From a virus (lineage: Duplodnaviria > Heunggongvirae > Uroviricota > Caudoviricetes), in IMG/VR virus record IMGVR_UViG_2574180019_000004, positions 1 through 39,225 of that record: a DNA stretch of 39,225 nucleotides. One strand, written 5' to 3'. Position numbers and translations under genes: made by a program. The notes below the pieces were generated by a model. It was not told the DNA's origin and ran no database searches. It worked only from the letters and a program-made list of their open reading frames with translations. This document shows, piece after piece, positions 2,127 through 33,231 of this stretch (position 1 is its first letter; each line of letters opens with the position of its first letter).

Positions 2127-2773
2127 GCTGCACGCTCCCGCCCCTGGTTGTCTATTGGTGACACCGGAGCATTGCTGAATGCATTTGTTAATCCGCCAAT
2201 ATCCAACGCGTATCCAGGGTGTAGTTGCACTGCCGGGTCTTCGCACTGATTACCCCAAACATCGAAGCCATGAGACGTCTGGCGGGCGAACAGTTCAATG
2301 CGAGAAACATCGCCTAACAATTGCACAAGTTTTTCACGAACGATATCTGGTTTTCTTGAGTGCTCAAGCCGCGGTGCGGTAAATGACTGAACGATCCCTG
2401 CATTAATGCGCGTAGGTAGTTTTCCCTTTACCGCAAACAGGCAATCTTCACTATTGGCGCGAGTCATGTGTCCCATACCCATAACCAGTTTATCTGGTTG
2501 TCGACTACCACATTTTATCCACGTGAAGCCCTTCATCGTCATCAGACGAAATCCCCAGGCTTCAACAACTTTTAGTGCTTCGAGTGGTTGTGTTGGCACC
2601 CACCACATGGCCAACAGACAGTTTTCAGCGGTCAAATCCCACACAGGAAGGCGGCAGATATCCAGCACACTCATAACTGGATATTTAAAACCGGCACCGC
2701 GATTACCATCTGCGGCTTTGTCCCGGTATACCCAGGGTGGATCTGCATAGATTAGTGTGTATTTCTTAGTCAT
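2123..2773 (-). CDS. DNA N6-adenine methyltransferase (MT-A70-like, orphan)
   Basis: DPPW catalytic motif near N-terminus ([16 protein letters not shown]); no adjacent restriction endonuclease ORF; translationally coupled to phosphatase gene. Confidence 0.85.
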
Positions 2774-3017
2774 AAACCACCCCACAACATCTTATGCCGC
2801 TATAGTCGCCACGGCGAAGGCCGTTACCTTTTGTGATACATTGGTCCCTGCGAACCGCGATCCTTGCACGTTCAACATCACCAGAAGCAACATCCATACA
2901 CTGAAGCCAAAGGTGAGCGGCAATGCGGAACTGCCCTTTTTTCTCTCTTTCAATCGCGCGTTTTTCGATCTCTATCGCCGCAGGAGTAACGGCGACAATC
3001 TTTGACGGACTGCGCAT
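2766..3017 (-). CDS. Hypothetical early protein (83 aa from ATG at 3017)
   Basis: ORF in leftward operon; AAGGT 5 nt upstream of ATG 3017; no recognisable motif; start uncertain. Confidence 0.4.
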   Translation of the reverse strand: MRSPSKIVAVTPAAIEIEKRAIEREKKGQFRIAAHLWLQCMDVASGDVERARIAVRRDQCITKGNGLRRGDYSGIRCCGVVYD

Positions 3018-3472: not shown

Positions 3473-4354
3473 TTACATAGATGTTTCGTTTAATTCTTCC
3501 CGACGAACGCTGTAAACGTCGGTGGCTTTTGCCAGCAGTTCGTCATCATCTGAAAGTTTTTGTGCAATGTATTTGTAAGCCTTATCCAGTTCGGAGACAG
3601 TGCTGTAATTCATCGCTGCGCTGGTAAAGGCCATCAGCATTTCTTCTGGATCACGGCTATCCGCTTTACGCGTTTGCTCATCAGGCTTTTTCGCTGGTTT
3701 AGCGTTGATCAGACTGTTCATTCCCGCAGCAGTGGTCGTTTGCGGAGTAATGTCTCGCTCAACGCGCGGTGCCGTTTCCTGTAATTCGTCAGGGGTGTAA
3801 ACACCGAGAAGTACATCAGGAGCGTGCAGTCGAGCCCATCGTTTCGTGCAAAGATAGGCAAGTTGCTGGCGCGGATCCTGTTCCCACAATGGAGAGTTAC
3901 GCACTCCGGCTTGCGCCATACTGATGGTAAGCTCACGGGGTTCTGCTTCTCCTTTAAGAACCGCTGACACAGTTACCGTCAGATTCGGTGATTTATCTGT
4001 TTTGCCGTTAACATTCGACCAGTCACCGCTCCAGCGATAATTCAGGCGTGTCGCTAGCAGGCTGGAAGAGGATACGACCGCGTTTACCAACTGTGCTTCG
4101 TAGCCTAACGTTCCGTTTACCACATGCGTTTTTTGCGCCACGGCGAAAGGGTTCATTCCCCACTGTGCCGCCTGCATGGTCACCGCCAGACAATCGGCAG
4201 GTTTGCCTTCAAGATGTTTCGGTACAGTCGCTTTGCTTTGTGACATCAACTCCGCGAAACGCACCAGTTGATTCATGCCCTCCGGGCTGAAGATTGCCGC
4301 AGCAGTACCTACAGTTGCGCCTGGTTGTGATGTGATTGCGATATCATTGCTCAT
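3473..4354 (-). CDS. recT: RecT-family single-strand annealing recombinase
   Basis: 293-aa protein with RecT-like core (AQWGMNPF... region); ATGA overlap with upstream exonuclease gene, the classical exo-recT pair. Confidence 0.85.
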   Translation of the reverse strand: MSNDIAITSQPGATVGTAAAIFSPEGMNQLVRFAELMSQSKATVPKHLEGKPADCLAVTMQAAQWGMNPFAVAQKTHVVNGTLGYEAQLVNAVVSSSSLLATRLNYRWSGDWSNVNGKTDKSPNLTVTVSAVLKGEAEPRELTISMAQAGVRNSPLWEQDPRQQLAYLCTKRWARLHAPDVLLGVYTPDELQETAPRVERDITPQTTTAAGMNSLINAKPAKKPDEQTRKADSRDPEEMLMAFTSAAMNYSTVSELDKAYKYIAQKLSDDDELLAKATDVYSVRREELNETSM

Positions 4355-12452: not shown

Positions 12453-12493
12453 GAGTAGATTATGCATGATGAATTTGATGTGTTTTGAATACT

Positions 12494-12519
12494 GCCGCCA
12501 ACTATGGCGGCTTTATTTT
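12494..12519 (+). terminator. Rho-independent terminator upstream of terS
   Basis: gccgcc-aactat-ggcggc followed by tttatttt. Confidence 0.6.
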
Positions 12520-12530
12520 GCATGTTACTA

Positions 12531-12563
12531 TTACCACAACGGTAACTATTACCACGGTGGTTA
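12531..12563. promoter_or_regulatory. Operator palindromes immediately upstream of terS
   Basis: Perfect TTACCacaacGGTAA 12531-12545 and imperfect TTACCacggtGGTtA 12549-12563. Confidence 0.55.
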
Positions 12564-12565
12564 TG

Positions 12566-13159
12566 ATGCCTGCTGAACCTAAAACCTATAAACGCAAATC
12601 AACGCAATTTAAGCCACTAACAGCAATGCAGGAGGCTTATTGCCAGTCATACATCAAAACGCCTGAAAACCAGACTCAGGCAGCGATTAACGCAGGATTC
12701 TCCCCAAATACAGCGGCAGTTAAAGCCAGTGTCATGATGCGCGATGAACGCATTCAAAAACGGATTGCCGAGTTGATGGAGGAGCGCAACAAACGAATGC
12801 GCGTCAGTGCTGATTACGTTCTCATGCGCCTGGTGGAGATCGACCAGATGGACGTGATCGACATCCTCAACGACGATGGGAGCCTTAAACCAATCCGTGA
12901 GTGGCCGAAAATCTGGCGCACTACGCTTAGTGGCTTTGATCTGTCATCGACCATCATGAACATGAACGAGGATTCGATAGAGACAATCCTCAAAAAAATT
13001 AAATGGCCTGACAAGGTGAAGAACCTTGAGCTGATTGGTAAGCATGTTGATGTCAACGCGTTCAAAGAACGTCTGGATGTTAATGTGAATGTGACAATTG
13101 CTGATCGCATAGCAGCAGCCAGGAAGAGACTGAAAGAACGTCAGGATGGCAATAAGTGA
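12566..13159 (+). CDS. terS: Terminase small subunit
   Basis: Conserved TerS-like region AYCQSYIKTPENQTQAAINAGFSPNTAAVKASVMMRD; directly upstream of and overlapping terL; N-terminal part of the tracked ORF treated as non-coding. Confidence 0.8.
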   Translation: MPAEPKTYKRKSTQFKPLTAMQEAYCQSYIKTPENQTQAAINAGFSPNTAAVKASVMMRDERIQKRIAELMEERNKRMRVSADYVLMRLVEIDQMDVIDILNDDGSLKPIREWPKIWRTTLSGFDLSSTIMNMNEDSIETILKKIKWPDKVKNLELIGKHVDVNAFKERLDVNVNVTIADRIAAARKRLKERQDGNK

Positions 13160-14631
13160 CAGATACAGCGTTATCTCCTGAAGATCAGTTAATCGAGGAT
13201 ATTGCAGGGTTCACTCACGATCCGCTTGGCTATGCCCTCTATGCGTTCCCGTGGGGGGAAGAGGGTACTGAACTGGCACATGCCACCGGTCCACGTCAGT
13301 GGCAGGCCGATGCGTTCCGAGAGATACGTGATCACCTGCAGAATCCAGAGACGCGCTATCAGCCGCTTATGCTGGCACGCGCTTCTGGTCACGGTATTGG
13401 TAAATCCGCATTCATCTCAATGCTGATCAACTGGGGCATGTCCACTTGCGAGGATTGTAAGGTCGTGGTGACCGCCAACACCGACAACCAGCTACGAACG
13501 AAGACCTGGCCGGAAATTATCAAGTGGTCGAACCTTGCTATCACGAAAGAGTGGTTTACCTGTACCGCTACCGCGATGTACAGCAATGACCCTGGGCACG
13601 ACAAGCGGTGGCGAGCTGACGCAATCCCCTGGTCTGAGCACAACACTGAGGCATTCGCCGGACTACACAACGAGCGAAAACGCATCATCGTGGTATTCGA
13701 TGAAGCGTCGAACATTGCGGATCTGGTGTGGGAAGTTGCTGAGGGTGCGCTTACGGACGAAGACACTGAGATTATCTGGGTGGCGTTCGGAAACCCTACA
13801 CGTAACACCGGACGTTTCCGCGAATGTTTCCGCAAATATAAACACCGCTGGAAAACTGCGCAGATTGACAGCCGAACGGTGGAAGGCACTAACAAACAGC
13901 AGTTGCAGAAATGGGTTGATGACTACGGGGAAGACAGCGACTTCGTTAAAATCCGTGTGCGCGGCATATTCCCTGATGCATCTGAATTGCAGTTTATCCC
14001 TACCGGTCTTACTGATGAGGCAATGAAACGGGTGGTAACCGCTGCGCAGGTGGCGCATGCTCCGGTGATAATCGGTGTTGACCCGGCATATTCAGGCGTT
14101 GATGACGCGGTGATATACCTGCGGCAGGGGCTACACAGTAAGGTGCTGTGGACTGGCAACAAGACTACCGACGATCTGATTATGGCGAAGCGTATCGCTG
14201 ACTTTGAAGACCAGTATCAGGCTGACGCGGTGTTCATCGACTTCGGTTACGGAACCGGTCTGAAGTCAATCGGTGACGGATGGGGTCGTACATGGCAACT
14301 TGTTCCGTTCGGTGGCGCGTCTACTGACCCGCAGATGCTCAACAAGCGTGGGGAGATGTTCAATTCATGCAAGACATGGCTGAGGCTGGGCGGCATGCTG
14401 GATGACCAGGAAACAGCAGACGACCTGTCGGCGGCAGAGTACAAAGTTCGAGTGGATGGTAAAATCGTTATCGAACCGAAGGAAGATATCAAGGAGCGGA
14501 TTGGGCGTTCGCCGGGTAAAGGCGATGCGCTACTGCTGACGTTTGCGTTCCCTGTGTCTAAGCGTCTGCAAATTCCCGGGCAGCAGAACCAGCAAGGCAA
14601 GGCCATCACAGATTACGATCCCTATGCTTAA
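13156..14631 (+). CDS. terL: Terminase large subunit
   Basis: Walker A-like ASGHGIGKSAF and Walker B-like IIVVFDEAS; GTGA overlap with terS stop. Confidence 0.85.
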   Translation: MTDTALSPEDQLIEDIAGFTHDPLGYALYAFPWGEEGTELAHATGPRQWQADAFREIRDHLQNPETRYQPLMLARASGHGIGKSAFISMLINWGMSTCEDCKVVVTANTDNQLRTKTWPEIIKWSNLAITKEWFTCTATAMYSNDPGHDKRWRADAIPWSEHNTEAFAGLHNERKRIIVVFDEASNIADLVWEVAEGALTDEDTEIIWVAFGNPTRNTGRFRECFRKYKHRWKTAQIDSRTVEGTNKQQLQKWVDDYGEDSDFVKIRVRGIFPDASELQFIPTGLTDEAMKRVVTAAQVAHAPVIIGVDPAYSGVDDAVIYLRQGLHSKVLWTGNKTTDDLIMAKRIADFEDQYQADAVFIDFGYGTGLKSIGDGWGRTWQLVPFGGASTDPQMLNKRGEMFNSCKTWLRLGGMLDDQETADDLSAAEYKVRVDGKIVIEPKEDIKERIGRSPGKGDALLLTFAFPVSKRLQIPGQQNQQGKAITDYDPYA

Positions 14632-14671
14632 TCCGCTGGTTGGGATAATGTCGTTGATATCCTCTGATGAG

Positions 14672-14705
14672 GATAAAACAAAGCCAGCTCATCGGCTGGC
14701 TGTTT
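14672..14705. terminator. Bidirectional intrinsic terminator between terL and convergent moron gene
   Basis: gccagc-tcatcg-gctggc with A-run upstream and tgtttg downstream. Confidence 0.6.
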
Positions 14706-14717
14706 GTGACATGTCAC
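14706..14717. repeat. Palindrome GTGACATGTCAC (copy 2 of 3)
   Basis: Exact copy immediately after the terminator hairpin. Confidence 0.6.
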
Positions 14718-14721
14718 GGTG

Positions 14722-15096
14722 TTATTGCTCGCTTAGCTTCTGCTTCAGCAAGTAACCTTCGAGCATCCAGATTTTGTTTACAGCATTCTGCCGGGCAATC
14801 TTCCTACCAATTTCTGCATCAAAGTTTTCCGGGCTTGCACAGGCACTCTCTCCGGTAACGGTGAAGCCATTCTTCAGTACCAATACGCAGAAAGTGAGAA
14901 GGTGCAGAGCATCAGGGGTGGCTTCGACATAAGGCTCCGGATTATAAATAAGGTCATCTTCTTTAGCCTGGTGGTCACCCTGCGCAGCAGTGAAAAAATG
15001 CTCACTGCAAATGAGGCCTTCAATTTTCTCGGGTGTTACACGCGGTGCCGTTTTGCCTTTCTCAACGATTTCTTTTTCGATTTGCTGGTCGTTCAT
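14722..15096 (-). CDS. Hypothetical protein (moron, opposite strand to packaging/head genes)
   Basis: 124-aa ORF with strong RBS AAGGTGAG 4 nt before ATG; co-oriented with tRNA; no motif recognised. Confidence 0.6.
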   Translation of the reverse strand: MNDQQIEKEIVEKGKTAPRVTPEKIEGLICSEHFFTAAQGDHQAKEDDLIYNPEPYVEATPDALHLLTFCVLVLKNGFTVTGESACASPENFDAEIGRKIARQNAVNKIWMLEGYLLKQKLSEQ

Positions 15097-15207
15097 AATC
15101 TCACCTTAAAAAAATGCCCGGCGAACCAGGCGAACTGGAAGCAATGAGTTATGCCTTCCGTGGCTGTACGGGTTTACAGCATGAAGTCATCGCAATGGCG
15201 TCCTGCT

Positions 15208-15251
15208 GTAAAAAGGGCGGTGATAGTCCTTCAAGGGAACCATCACCGCCA
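15208..15251 (-). terminator. Candidate terminator downstream of tRNA
   Basis: gggcggtgat ... atcaccgcc 9-bp stem with 17-nt loop, followed on minus strand by UUUU. Confidence 0.45.
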
Positions 15252-15293
15252 AGCACCTGGAACTTCTGGCATCACGGTCCTTAGGCGTGATTC

Positions 15294-15370
15294 TGGCGTG
15301 GCATGCAGGATTCGAACCTGCGACCAACCGCTTAGAAGGCGGTTGCTCTGTCCGACTGAGCTAATGCCAC
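15294..15370 (-). tRNA. tRNA-Arg (anticodon UCU)
   Basis: Minus-strand 77-nt cloverleaf folded by hand: acceptor GTGGCAT/ATGCCAC, D-stem GCTC/GAGC, anticodon stem ACCGC/GCGGT with loop CTTCTAA, T-arm GCAGG-TTCGAAT-CCTGC, discriminator G, encoded CCA. Confidence 0.9.
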
Positions 15371-15692
15371 AACGCTGAGAGCACTTAGCCTGTTAAGGCG
15401 CCACACTTTGTCGCGGCTCCATAAATGCTCTCATCGTTGTACCCTCGTCTCTTCCGAGGCGTCACACCGAATCGCCGGGATGGTGAATCCCCGTGCGCGG
15501 AATAAAACCGCTCGACTTGCACATTCCGGCTACCTGGTTCGTTTGCCCGAGCAAGGGAGGGTGCCCCTTAAACGTATCCAGACCGCTATCGTCGCATGTG
15601 CCATACGCCGTACTGCTCAAAATAAAAGCTCACTCCACCTGTTCAATTTAACGACAAGCCAGTCAGGTTAGTAACCGGAATGAGCTCTTTGG

Positions 15693-15707
15693 TTACCTTA
15701 AAGGTAA
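15693..15707. promoter_or_regulatory. Perfect operator palindrome upstream of head operon
   Basis: TTACCttaaaGGTAA; ATGTGGTT motif at 15753 between it and gene start. Confidence 0.6.
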
Positions 15708-15797
15708 TAATTCGTGCGTTAAATGTCAACTACCTACGATAAATAAATCATATGTGGTTAAATTGGTAATAATTTAATTGCGTACGGAGTCATTGAT

Positions 15798-16004
15798 ATG
15801 TGCATGGGTAGCTCACCATCAGTGCCTGCAACACCAGAAGTTCAGGCAGCACCACAGGAGCAGGATGCCGCCGTTGTTGATGCCCGCGACGAAGAAACAC
15901 GTCGCCGTCGCGCTGCTGCTGGTCGTAGTTCTACGCTGCTTACTGGTTCTCAGGGCGACACATCAACCGCTAATACCAGCGGTAAAACGCTGCTTGGTCA
16001 GTAA
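15798..16004 (+). CDS. Small hypothetical protein upstream of portal
   Basis: 68-aa ORF MCMGSSPSVPATPEV..., low complexity; weak support. Confidence 0.4.
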   Translation: MCMGSSPSVPATPEVQAAPQEQDAAVVDARDEETRRRRAAAGRSSTLLTGSQGDTSTANTSGKTLLGQ

Positions 16005-16018
16005 CCGGAGTCATTGAA

Positions 16019-17698
16019 ATGGCGGAAACAACTAAAGAGCGATTGAACAAACAGTTCGCACAACTTGAAAGCGAGCGTCAGTCGTTCGAGCCGCACTGGC
16101 GCGAGTTGAGTGATTACATCAACCCGCGTGGTTCCCGCTTTCTGACTTCAGAGGTCAACCGTAACGATCGACGCAATGCACGCATTATTGATTCGACCGG
16201 GACTATGGCGGCGCGCACTCTCGCCAGCGGCATGATGTCAGGCATCACAAGCCCCGCGCGTCCGTGGTTTCGCCTGGCTACGCCAGATCCTGAAATGATG
16301 GATTATGGCCCTGTTAAGTTGTGGCTTGAGGCGGTGCAGAACCGCATGAACGATATGTTCAATAAGTCGAATCTCTACCAGTCTCTTCCGCAGTTATACG
16401 GAAGCCTCGGCACATACAGCACTGGTGCAATGGCAGTGCTGGAGGATGACGAGGACATCATTCGTACAATGCCATTCCCGATAGGCAGTTACTACCTGGC
16501 TAACTCACCTCGTGGCAGTGTTGACACCTGTTTTCGCAAGTTCTCTATGACTGTTCGTCAGCTTGTTCAGGAGTTCGGGCTAAATAACGTCAGCGAATCC
16601 GTAAAAAGCATGTGGGAAAGCGGCACCTACGAGAAGTGGATCGAAGTGATGCATTCGGTTTACCCGAACATTGACCGCGATACATCGAAGCTGGATAGCA
16701 AGAACAAGCCATTCAAATCGGTTTATTACGAGGTTGGCGGCGATAACGACAAGTTGTTGCGTGAGTCCGGATTCGATGAGTTTCCAATTATGGCTCCGCG
16801 CTGGGAAGTTAACGGCGAAGATGTTTATGGATCATCATGCCCGGGTATGCTGGCGCTTGGACCTGTTAAGGCATTGCAGCTTCTCCAGAAGCGCAAGTCG
16901 CAGTTGATTGATAAAGCCACCAATCCGCCGATGGTTGCTCCGACTTCCCTCAAGAATCAGCGCGCCTCCCTTCTTCCTGGCGACATCACGTATATCGATC
17001 AGATTACTGGTCAGGATGGTTTCAGGCCTGCTTATCTGGTTAACCCCAGTACAGCAGATCTGGTGGCAGACATTCAGGACACTCGCCAAATCATTAACAG
17101 CGCCTACTTTGTCGATCTGTTCATGATGTTGCAGAACATCAATACCCGCTCGATGCCTGTTGAAGCGGTGATCGAAATGAAAGAAGAAAAACTTCTGATG
17201 TTGGGGCCGGTTCTGGAGCGTCTGAACGACGAATGTCTTAATCCTCTCATTGACCGCGCTTTCTCTATGATGGTGCGTAAAAACATGCTGCCGCCACCGC
17301 CTGACGCGATGGAAGGCATGCCCCTGAAGGTCGAATACATTTCCGTCATGGCTCAGGCGCAGAAGTCTATCGGCCTGTCCAGTCTGGCGTCCACGGTTAA
17401 CTTCATTGGTCAACTTGCGCAAGCGAAACCAGAAGCTCTCGACAAACTCAACGTTGATCAGGCGATCGATGCATTCGCTGATATGTCCGGAGTGTCTCCA
17501 ACCGTCATTGTTCCGCAGGAACAGGTTGAGCAGGCTCGCCAGCAACGGGCACAGCAACAACAGCAGCAACAAATGATGGCGATGGGGATGGCGGCGGCAC
17601 AGGGTGCCAAGACGCTAAGTGAAGCTAAAACTTCGGATCCGAGTGTTTTGTCAGCTATGGCGAATGCAGTTAGTGGTCAGGGTGGGCAATCACAATGA
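16019..17698 (+). CDS. Portal protein (T7 gp8-like head-to-tail connector)
   Basis: 559 aa; position after terminase; C-terminal Q/A/M-rich tail (QQRAQQQQQQQMMAMGMAAAQG) resembles remembered T7 portal C-terminus. Confidence 0.8.
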   Translation: MAETTKERLNKQFAQLESERQSFEPHWRELSDYINPRGSRFLTSEVNRNDRRNARIIDSTGTMAARTLASGMMSGITSPARPWFRLATPDPEMMDYGPVKLWLEAVQNRMNDMFNKSNLYQSLPQLYGSLGTYSTGAMAVLEDDEDIIRTMPFPIGSYYLANSPRGSVDTCFRKFSMTVRQLVQEFGLNNVSESVKSMWESGTYEKWIEVMHSVYPNIDRDTSKLDSKNKPFKSVYYEVGGDNDKLLRESGFDEFPIMAPRWEVNGEDVYGSSCPGMLALGPVKALQLLQKRKSQLIDKATNPPMVAPTSLKNQRASLLPGDITYIDQITGQDGFRPAYLVNPSTADLVADIQDTRQIINSAYFVDLFMMLQNINTRSMPVEAVIEMKEEKLLMLGPVLERLNDECLNPLIDRAFSMMVRKNMLPPPPDAMEGMPLKVEYISVMAQAQKSIGLSSLASTVNFIGQLAQAKPEALDKLNVDQAIDAFADMSGVSPTVIVPQEQVEQARQQRAQQQQQQQMMAMGMAAAQGAKTLSEAKTSDPSVLSAMANAVSGQGGQSQ

Positions 17699-32950: not shown

Positions 32951-33231
32951 AGTGATCACCTTTGTAGTTAGGTTAATCACCACTACCGACGCCAATCGGT
33001 TGGTGGTGAACTGTGCAGGGTTGGCGTAACCGGCTACAAAGGACCCGGCGCACCTTTCGGTGCCCCCACACAGCCCACCATAGAATAGGTGCGCTTTACA
33101 CATAAAAAAACCGCTTATGCGGCATATGTGCCTCTGTAGTAATCCGGGACGCCAATCCCGGCACTGGATTTTGCCAGTGCCCGATTACTATGGCACAAGA
33201 GGAGTGCGATGTAAATTTACCGTAAAGGTAA
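32951..33231 (-). promoter_or_regulatory. Structured 5' leader / candidate small RNA upstream of Bro-N antirepressor
   Basis: Hairpin 32977-33009 (12-bp stem, loop ACGCCAAT); complementary TTGGCGT at 33021-33027; hairpin 33050-33063; terminator-like ccgc-ttat-gcgg + A-run (33104-33122); three-helix element 33136-33191 with loop ACGCCAAT again; candidate -35 TTGATT / -10 TATCAT on minus strand. Confidence 0.4.

Follow-up and report, generated by a model that had tools for sequence, protein, structure and literature searches.

A structured RNA, a tRNA-Arg(UCU) and an Acb4-family gene form a predicted counter-defence cassette between terL and portal of a phiV10-like phage

Why does a temperate phage interrupt its packaging and head genes, between terL and portal, with a transfer RNA (tRNA) gene and a small open reading frame (ORF) that run against both? 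The question is raised by IMG/VR record IMGVR_UViG_2574180019_000004, whose 39,225 nucleotides (nt) were analyzed as one stretch (the window) and whose cassette belongs to a phiV10-like temperate podophage (Uetakevirus) of E. coli. The original prediction, made from the sequence, described an acquired moron cassette consisting of an opposite-strand tRNA-Arg(UCU) and an unknown 124-residue gene bracketed by hairpin terminators. Both genes lie where it placed them, and a terminator scan calls terminator-like minus-strand hairpins at three sites (hairpins B and D and the terminal hairpin; Table 1); the region beyond the tRNA, 15371-15797, which was treated as empty, holds a large structured RNA and a promoter/operator region. 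The complete leftward unit, running against terL and portal on the minus strand, consists of a promoter-like site, the structured RNA, tRNA-Arg(UCU), a leader and an acb4-family gene, a layout that is common to Uetakevirus relatives. On balance it is probable that this cassette, including the mechanism proposed below, is a counter-defence accessory transcription unit, of which the upstream RNA is the part most worth following up.

The gene that had been left as unknown is placed in the Acb4 family (PF13876) by profile, solved-structure and fold matches. Its 124-residue product matches Pfam PF13876 (Phage_gp49_66) over the entire profile (positions 1-82 of 82; 118.1 bits against a cut-off of 27, E 2.4e-34), as well as phrog_322; in a homologue search with the protein, 8000 of 8000 scored candidates pass E <= 0.001, and all 120 of the 120 homologues among the matches listed carry PF13876. 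The ORF, whose strong ribosome-binding site (RBS) had been correctly noted, is therefore strongly conserved. A phmmer search against solved structures returns a sole match, PDB 9e4w, entitled 'anti-CBASS 4 (Acb4)' (E 0.0039), where CBASS stands for cyclic-oligonucleotide-based antiphage signaling system. An AlphaFold2 model built on 45 homologues (predicted local distance difference test score 80.1) retrieves chains of the same entry at Foldseek ranks 1-13 (probability 0.99-1.00, E ~2e-3 to 8e-3), followed at E > 0.2 by folds like the double-stranded-RNA-binding domain, a resemblance of the Acb4 fold that has also been remarked elsewhere (10.1101/2024.12.30.630793). Membership of the Acb4 family is secure.

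The founding member, SPO1 Acb4 (9E4W), is a tetrameric sponge for 3'3'-cyclic GMP-AMP (3'3'-cGAMP), as described together with a crystal structure of the complex by Chang et al. (10.1101/2024.12.30.630793). The same study equates PF13876 with Acb4, reports that eight further homologues, not named in the text, all bound 3'3'-cGAMP, with 3'3'-cyclic di-AMP (3'3'-cAA) also bound only by those from phages of Gram-negative hosts, and lists phiV10 Q287B5 and Sf6 gp66 in its Table S3. Residues 64-124 of the window's protein are identical to phiV10 p03 at 58 of 61 positions and to Sf6 gp66 at 60 of 61, and residues 37-63 form a hypervariable insert in which 6 of 27 positions are identical in the same comparison. 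In addition to being the best and sole confident fold match, SPO1 Acb4 resembles the protein in its similar size, in its arrangement of helices, three-strand sheet and long C-terminal helix, in the retained ENF-x-x-EIGR motif and in being the product of a small stand-alone phage gene; it differs in that the window's protein is only ~22% identical to it, is 28 residues longer and contains the insert at 37-63. Of the SPO1 ligand contacts considered (K36, F48, E49, V56, Y57, F62, N63, I66, T70 and K81, among which K36 and K81 are not reliably alignable), F48, F62 and I66 are identical in the phmmer alignment and N63 is changed to D, E49 to T, V56 to C, Y57 to A and T70 to I, so that neither the residue that reads guanine (E49) nor the phosphate contacts (Y57 and T70) are kept. 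The protein is a predicted cyclic-dinucleotide sponge against CBASS. Both it and the tRNA are of already-known kinds, with orthologues in public tables.

The RNA directly upstream of the tRNA (15371-15616, minus strand; 246 nt) consists of a core of five helices (P1, P2, P3', P4 and P5) and two pseudoknots (PKa and PKb), followed by a P6 domain. A covariance model of the core, R1, matches the window once (141.5 bits, E 2.5e-45). In an independent MAFFT alignment of 33 diverse sequences of <90% identity, in which invariant runs are separated by variable hairpins, 96.6% of 1022 cells of the proposed structure pair and compensatory changes are seen in 12 pairs; these figures are matched by 0 of 500 shuffles, and slid controls pair at 28-45%. 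Covariation backs P1, P2, P4, P5 and the P4-loop pseudoknot, where CACC/GGUG becomes AACC/GGUU; PKa and P3' are invariant and hence unproven, and a nested alternative from RNAalifold that pairs the P1 loop with AUGUGC is kept as pseudoknot PKa. Since ~50 G-U cells would turn into A-C mismatches on the other strand, the fold is specific to the strand of the tRNA. The minimum-free-energy fold of 15371-15640 as a single sequence is no better than shuffles (z = -1.03 for the minus and -1.92 for the plus strand), so the evidence for the structure is covariation, not energy; a first, crude helix finder was uninformative on this RNA.

The 246-nt RNA appears to be undescribed: Rfam 15 leaves it unmatched both at gathering thresholds across the whole window and at E <= 5 across 14600-16050, RefSeq leaves it unannotated, and a full-text search with five of its sequence strings, outside whose scope the subscription literature lay, returns 0 papers. 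Keyword searches of the literature on prophage structured RNAs and antitermination RNAs retrieve nothing fitting, and a permissive-E Rfam search over 12 related loci finds nothing on the RNA or on the tRNA-like modules described below. The prophage Pas small RNAs are unrelated and located in the late/lysis region.

DNA 77-83% identical to 15371-15611 is found in cdtI, in Shiga toxin (Stx) 2c- and Stx2a-converting phages, in P1/P7/D6/SJ46/RCS47, in Klebsiella SopranoGao, in a Stenotrophomonas phage and in mEp390, and these copies are almost always unannotated. Of 5426 complete E. coli genomes, 1840 contain the RNA; 554 of its places are on plasmids, and the annotated feature under the match is always 'none'. 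At least 119 IMG/VR contigs share its invariant 19-mer, as do 24 species-representative genomes, almost all of them from Enterobacterales. Two contigs carry the label of an Oscillospiraceae / Bacillota metagenome-assembled genome: L139 shares the 19-mer alone, a chance match, and L151, 1.7 kb long, contains a genuine copy of the RNA beneath upstream sequence nearly identical to that of viral contig L047, so that mis-binning is likely and not an occurrence in Firmicutes. The RNA marks mosaic junctions between phages. Several relatives annotate a 'hypothetical protein' over it.

In all of these settings the RNA lies on the coding strand, upstream of genes of the same direction, usually with 250-650 nt between it and the first ORF. 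Directly downstream of a cI-type repressor gene, and on the same strand, it is found in cdtI, mEp390, Stx2a_WGPS2 and the Stenotrophomonas phage; in cdtI the cI terminator is followed by a TTGACA-16-CATAAT promoter and, ~40 nt later, by the start of the RNA, which is there the leader of an early leftward operon. In P7 it lies between trnI and ban, and 19 loci of the P1/P7 type have a tRNA with a CAT anticodon, annotated as tRNA-Ile, 17 nt upstream of it. Among 105 non-redundant loci, 37% have a strict terminator-like hairpin behind the RNA on its own strand; for the opposite strand the figure is 6%. A perfect boxA of the rrn type, GCTCTTTAA, follows it in only 2 of 109 loci, and dependence on Nus and boxA is therefore not general.

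The P6 stem links the RNA to what comes next: it ends on the base just before nucleotide 1 of the tRNA. The same closing stem forms in 13 loci that were folded, around inserts of 72-135 nt, and it covaries, with compensatory variants in L026, L101 and Stenotrophomonas phage BUCT709. By pattern, P6 is followed in 153 loci by tRNA-Arg(UCU) (28), by a tRNA-like module (65) or by something else, including another tRNA (4), and is not detected in the remaining 56. The module spans 75-200 nt bounded by GUGG...CCAC-AAC and matches neither Rfam nor ARAGORN models; it contains a D-like hairpin (GCGCAGGCUGAUGCGC) and a T-like hairpin (GCCGGAGAUCAGCACCGGC), which covary, as in L004 at ~2385-2497 (-) (cdtI), L008, L036 and L146. 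In L133 and L153, P6 is followed by a tRNA with anticodon AAT (tRNA-Ile according to ARAGORN), without encoded CCA and ending in ...CGCCGC-AACC, a form that falls between true tRNAs and the tRNA-like module. Between the annotated tRNAs of the P7 ban operon (L005) there are, as separate near-threshold matches, an STnc100 (3505-3620 (-), 43 bits against 47) and a tRNA-Sec-like sequence (3733-3817 (-), 46.6 bits against 47).

The tRNA itself is complete, as had been predicted. ARAGORN finds exactly one tRNA in the window, with anticodon tct at position 35, and the RF00005 covariance model matches it over its full length (1-71) at 73.3 bits against a gathering threshold of 29 (E 2.4e-14). Compared with host argU, which is next to fimZ/intD, 63 of 77 bases match; the anticodon loop (CUUCUAA) and T-arm are identical, and the 14 differences lie mostly in the acceptor and anticodon stems, as in a predicted argU-like isoacceptor. 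The identity elements of E. coli arginyl-tRNA synthetase are A20, C35 and U36, and all three are present, A20 within the D-loop AGUCGGACA. At >=95% identity the phage-type tRNA occurs in ~505 of 5518 E. coli records; elsewhere the best match is a host tRNA-Arg at 84.5%. Relatives in RefSeq/GenBank, such as O157 typing phage 9 and Salmonella phage SPN9TCW, annotate a tRNA-Arg. The RefSeq record of phiV10 (NC_007804.2) lacks the tRNA feature and has instead a plus-strand hypothetical coding sequence, PhiV10p04 (2672-2923 (+)), that spans the tRNA-Arg on the opposite strand and is probably a mis-annotation.

The earlier suggestion that the tRNA supplies rare arginine codons is plausible. Over 39 long, mutually non-overlapping ORFs in the window, AGA and AGG account for 115 of 661 arginine codons (17%), or 6.25 and 3.73 per 1000 codons, respectively; they cluster in one early gene and in the genes for tail, injection and tailspike. 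In E. coli K-12 the two codons occur at roughly 2 and 1 per 1000. Other phage tRNA-Arg(UCU) genes (the tRNA-Arg of T4, argN/argO of Stx phages and those of SPN9TCW and typing phage 9) share the anticodon, a complete cloverleaf and a genome with raised AGA/AGG. Unlike them, the present tRNA has a large structured RNA on one side and, on the other, a leader rich in terminators that feeds an anti-defence gene, and its sister loci put a tRNA-shaped module that is not a tRNA at the same position.

Between the tRNA and acb4, the untranslated leader forms hairpins A, B and D, the RBS of the gene lying within 3 nt of the U-tract of hairpin D; the leader folds better than shuffles (z = -3.95). Across 27 distinct loci with the RNA and tRNA-Arg its conservation extends as far as hairpin D, and paired bases of hairpins B and D change in a compensatory way (for example GCCCGG..CCGGGC versus GCCCAC..GTGGGC), and the gene behind it differs. 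The same leader and RBS are followed by either of two Acb4 subtypes, by Tad2-like proteins, by families without Pfam match or by no gene, since some loci keep the leader and terminator D without cargo. The Tad2-like cargo (PF11195) comprises 98-residue and 173-residue proteins behind the leader, and a further Tad2-like protein of 191 residues follows the RNA in P1-like elements; Tad2-like and other cargo is found in loci L094, L105, L083 and L066. A Pfam search of the SPN9TCW cargo and of five other families of cargo or first ORFs yields no family. Among the cargo without Pfam match are a 140-residue MKTIDMLAKYL family, a 138-residue lipobox protein in SPN9TCW/L059, a 143-residue Cys-rich protein (L081), an 86-residue protein (L044) and a 130-residue MSAAIKRVRPMD family in 32 lambdoid loci. 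Judged by these comparisons, the leader is the conserved part of the locus and the cargo an exchangeable, putative counter-defence gene, so that the site has the form of an anti-defence slot.

Morons and anti-defence accessory slots are likewise autonomous units between essential late genes, with their own promoter and terminator and a cargo that varies between close relatives. The present unit differs from both in that a non-coding leader is the conserved part and the cargo sits after two terminators, and from morons in that its promoter appears to be under repressor control rather than expressed in the lysogen; this leader-plus-slot organization is a fresh variation on the theme of the moron or anti-defence island. 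Loss also occurs: epsilon15 keeps acb4 but no longer has the tRNA, and of the RNA only a 5' remnant is left (2640-2727, L006; 35.9 bits). A deletion between two copies of GGTTCCCTTGA, one in the P2 loop of the RNA and one in the loop of terminator hairpin B, appears to account for the loss, and the motif UUCCCUUGA shared by these loops may itself be functional. Downstream of the RNA in BUCT709 (L010), a sub-threshold RprA match lies at 2355-2474 (-) (50.2 bits against 70, E 0.001); RprA-like GCUGUGUGUAG strings are found in the leaders of SPN1S-type and some other loci, and the signal is not reproduced at E <= 0.1 in six other loci.

Upstream of the RNA, the leftward promoter-like site combines a consensus -35 element, TTGACA, with TACCTT across a 17-nt spacer, and its -10 element overlaps the palindrome TTACCTTAAAGGTAA, a putative repressor operator. 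Palindromes of the class TTACC-N5-GGTAA number 13 in the window against 0.63 expected (positions 151, 5643, 5705, 6417, 6465, 8748, 8810, 12531, 12549, 15693, 33217, 33310 and 34430), and copies stand at operon heads: before terS, around the immunity region and next to the RNA genes C4/isrK. Such a distribution resembles a regulon of dispersed operators like that of P1 C1, and the epsilon15 record annotates this type of palindrome as a 'repressor' site. The combination of TTGACA-17-TACCTT with the palindrome is also found upstream of the homologous RNA in SPN1S-type loci and in two unrelated prophages (L147 and L150). Because the -10 of the leftward promoter overlaps a repressor-type palindrome, the cassette would be an early lytic unit and not a lysogen-expressed moron. 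What survives of the moron proposal is a self-contained accessory unit on the opposite strand with a promoter-like site and terminators of its own; its expression in the lysogen is doubtful for the same reason. Recent acquisition is contradicted by the conservation of the layout across Uetakevirus and by a G+C content (0.47-0.49) only slightly below that of the flanks (0.53-0.55).

Table 1 Coordinates of the cassette, its RNA and DNA elements and the flanking genes in the window
Feature	Position	Strand	Description
terS	12485-13159	+	PF03592
terL	13156-14631	+	phrog_2
Terminal hairpin	14682..14701	both strands with T-rich tails	between the convergent stop codons of terL and acb4; terminator scan (-)
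acb4-family gene, 124 residues	14722..15096	-	ATG start preceded by AAGGTGAG; PF13876
Untranslated leader, 197 nt	15097..15293	-	hairpins A, B, D, then RBS
Hairpin D	15131..15116	-	terminator-like, followed by AUUUUUUU; RBS AAGGUGAG follows
Hairpin B	15250..15216	-	intrinsic-terminator-like, followed by CUUUUU
Hairpin A	15291..15271	-	in leader
tRNA-Arg(UCU)	15294..15370	-	ARAGORN and Rfam RF00005; encoded CCA end (gene ends GCCA)
P6 domain	15371..15434	-	stem AACGAUGAGAGCAUU...AGUGCUCUCAGCGUU around a variable insert
RNA core	15435..15616	-	helices P1, P2, P3', P4, P5 and two pseudoknots; covariance model R1
Pseudoknot PKb	CACC 15485..15482 with GGUG 15468..15465	-	P4-loop pairing
Invariant 19-mer GGUAGCCGGAAUGUGCAAG	15534..15516	-	within RNA core
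Palindrome TTACCTTAAAGGTAA	15693-15707		overlaps -10; putative repressor operator
Leftward promoter-like site	15693..15729	-	TTGACA 15729..15724, 17-nt spacer, TACCTT 15706..15701
68-residue ORF	15798-16004	+	phrog_831; homologue of epsilon15 gp3, directly 5' of portal
Portal	16019-17698	+	PF12236

How would such a unit work? Transcription would probably start at the TTGACA-17-TACCTT promoter, the position of its -10 inside the palindrome suggesting a unit that is kept off in the lysogen and switched on by infection or induction. A single transcript would carry the pseudoknotted RNA, the tRNA, the leader with its two terminators and acb4. RNase P, presumably cutting at the junction of P6 and tRNA, and 3' processing would excise the tRNA, which would add decoding capacity for AGA (and AGG). 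An Acb4 oligomer would then sequester CBASS cyclic dinucleotides such as 3'3'-cGAMP, as other members of the family do, and leave the host effector untriggered. Because no promoter fits between the terminators and the RBS, the output of acb4 would have to depend on read-through. In the tentative and weakest step of this scheme, which we only infer, the 5' structured RNA may provide that read-through by making RNA polymerase resistant to the terminators, with the RNase P cut at the tRNA setting its 3' end.

Such a task would be analogous to that of HK022 putL and putR, which are cis-acting processive antiterminator RNAs of an N-less lambdoid phage. The likeness is one of position: the RNA is promoter-proximal, stands ahead of terminators and long untranslated stretches, follows the cI terminator in cdtI-type phages and is found in lambdoid prophages; such a position holds in the window (promoter, RNA, then hairpins B and D) and behind the strong promoter of cdtI, though not in P1/P7. 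The put RNA has ~70 nt and two stem-loops (PMC9378689), in contrast to the five helices and two pseudoknots of the 165-nt core here, to which P6 is added. The HK022 genome contains no match to the 19-mer at <=3 mismatches, and its best R1 match (7.7 bits, E 0.29) lies in a tail gene; on these grounds and for its different architecture the RNA is rejected as a member of the put family, and the functional analogy alone is kept. Among other RNAs, C4 of P1/P7 and CI of P4, both matured by RNase P, are also non-coding RNAs of temperate enterobacterial phages, and the present RNA is coupled to a tRNA or tRNA-like fold and is itself present in P1/P7; GOLLD and ROOL are structured phage RNAs that adjoin tRNAs. 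None of the models of these four matches the RNA, which at ~250 nt is larger than C4 and CI and far smaller than GOLLD and ROOL. A possible but doubtful extension is that the RNA and its abutting tRNA or tRNA-shaped module would represent a new class of phage regulatory RNA, matured by RNase P, that licenses early swappable anti-defence genes through the transcription complex or a host factor; its range would be that of the RNA, in Uetakeviruses, P1-like phage-plasmids, N-less lambdoid prophages and about one third of complete E. coli genomes.

Several observations weigh against the scheme. For the protein, Foldseek TM-scores (template modeling) to 9e4w are modest (0.37-0.53) and ~3-4 of the 9 alignable SPO1 ligand contacts are kept, so that its ligand range is not predictable from the family. 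The generic promoter scan of the window does not call the leftward site, because its -10 matches the consensus at only 3 of 6 positions and is weak, and the operator role of the palindrome goes back to another group's annotation of epsilon15. The tRNA may bring little benefit, since the host has argU with an identical anticodon loop. As for read-through, the RNA has neither sequence nor model similarity to put, a strict terminator stands behind it in just over a third of loci, and in P1/P7 it lies 81-88 nt before ban with no terminator-like hairpin nearby; by the last two points an antitermination role is either not general or wrong.

The main rival, which has a real if minority chance of being right, makes the RNA a stand-alone, trans-acting stable RNA, for instance a decoy or sponge for a host protein or an immune sensor, with the tRNA or tRNA-like part as an RNase P handle that generates a precise, base-paired 3' end, the terminators merely closing a non-coding operon and the cargo living on leak-through. 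It would explain why P6, where present, ends exactly at a tRNA or tRNA-shaped module, why P1/P7 have a tRNA immediately 5' of the RNA and why some loci with leader and terminator D lack cargo, and the long invariant single-stranded runs would suit a binding surface; the constant placement on the coding strand, upstream of same-direction genes, fits a cis role equally well. A sensor of the riboswitch kind, opening the terminators on demand in response to, say, an immune nucleotide signal, would account for the pseudoknots, the invariant junctions, the 5'-leader position and the terminators downstream. It is nevertheless very unlikely: the 77-nt tRNA and >40 nt more separate the RNA from the first terminator, making an overlap of aptamer and terminator impossible, the P1/P7 copies lack a terminator behind them, and no similarity to Rfam riboswitches is found. 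Hardly credible is that the 246 nt act as DNA, in recombination or protein binding, or hide a small protein gene, as the 'hypothetical protein' annotations over the RNA and its place at mosaic junctions might suggest; the variable hairpins differ in length by steps other than multiples of three, conservation of an ATG ORF is not seen, and the covariation pattern, with compensatory changes that keep helices and pseudoknots and the strand-specific G-U cells, excludes such roles.

Two other readings concern the genes rather than the RNA, and both are improbable. That of a prophage-expressed moron, in which the tRNA only eases translation of rare arginine codons and the second gene is an uncharacterized lysogenic-conversion factor, can draw on the unit's own promoter-like site and terminators, its orientation against its neighbors, the AGA/AGG enrichment and the slightly lower G+C content over the ORF. 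It conflicts with the assignment of that gene to a characterized anti-CBASS family, whose sponges act in lytic infection, with a -10 that overlaps a palindrome recurring at other operon heads and with a layout conserved across the genus. The tRNA could instead be a counter-defence part in its own right, replacing a host tRNA-Arg cleaved by a colicin D-type or other anticodon nuclease, so that the cassette as a whole would serve immune evasion. Phage tRNAs that neutralize tRNA-targeting defences are known, such as tRNA-Lys in T5 against PARIS, and also in mycobacteriophages; here the tRNA is co-located with sponge genes in an anti-defence slot and departs from argU at 14 bases, most of them in the acceptor or anticodon stem, but the anticodon loop, the usual target of such nucleases, is identical to the host's and codon enrichment is the simpler reason for its presence.

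The genomic setting supports the assignment to phiV10-like phages. Across the cassette region the window shares 96-98% identity with phiV10, O157 typing phages 9/10, ZX5, PAS61 and TL-2011b, all of them Uetakevirus, and the first 25 kb of the window align over 79-88% to whole genomes of the phiV10 group. Because of these whole-genome alignments and of an integrase (208-1464) at its left end, the window is a complete phiV10-like genome in prophage order. The idea that the tRNA is a recombination target stands in an evolutionary sense only, a conserved leader flanking swapped cargo; as an attachment site it is unlikely and was rejected on position, lying mid-genome and far from the integrase. 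On the far side of the cassette, the terminal hairpin ends both terL and the leftward unit, and in the phiV10 record the homologous site carries a plus-strand annotation as rho-independent terminator. The 68-residue ORF before portal has no Pfam family and is rich in Ala, Arg and Thr. Elsewhere in the window there is a true C4 antisense RNA (32999-33085 (-), 79.5 bits) with the Hfq-binding RNA isrK beside it (33104-33180 (-), 76.8 bits), an immI-like module of the P1/P7 type; the same pair is found in cdtI (L004 4776-4964) and Stx2a_WGPS2 (L155 5292-5480).

In summary, the finding as first noted is an ordinary one, a phage tRNA-Arg(UCU) being a textbook feature and the Acb4 sponge family having been described in 2024. 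Its immediate value lies in corrected annotation, as the RefSeq record of phiV10 calls the gene hypothetical, lacks the tRNA and places an opposite-strand coding sequence across it. Beyond this, the conserved leader with its swappable gene marks a locus to mine for anti-defence proteins, in which Acb4 and Tad2-like sponges share a slot with at least five unknown small proteins. Should the RNA prove to govern read-through, or to be processed into a stable species, then early gene control in phages and the expression of counter-defence would both gain a level of RNA-based regulation, in clinically common prophages that include those of Stx2a/2c and cdt phages.

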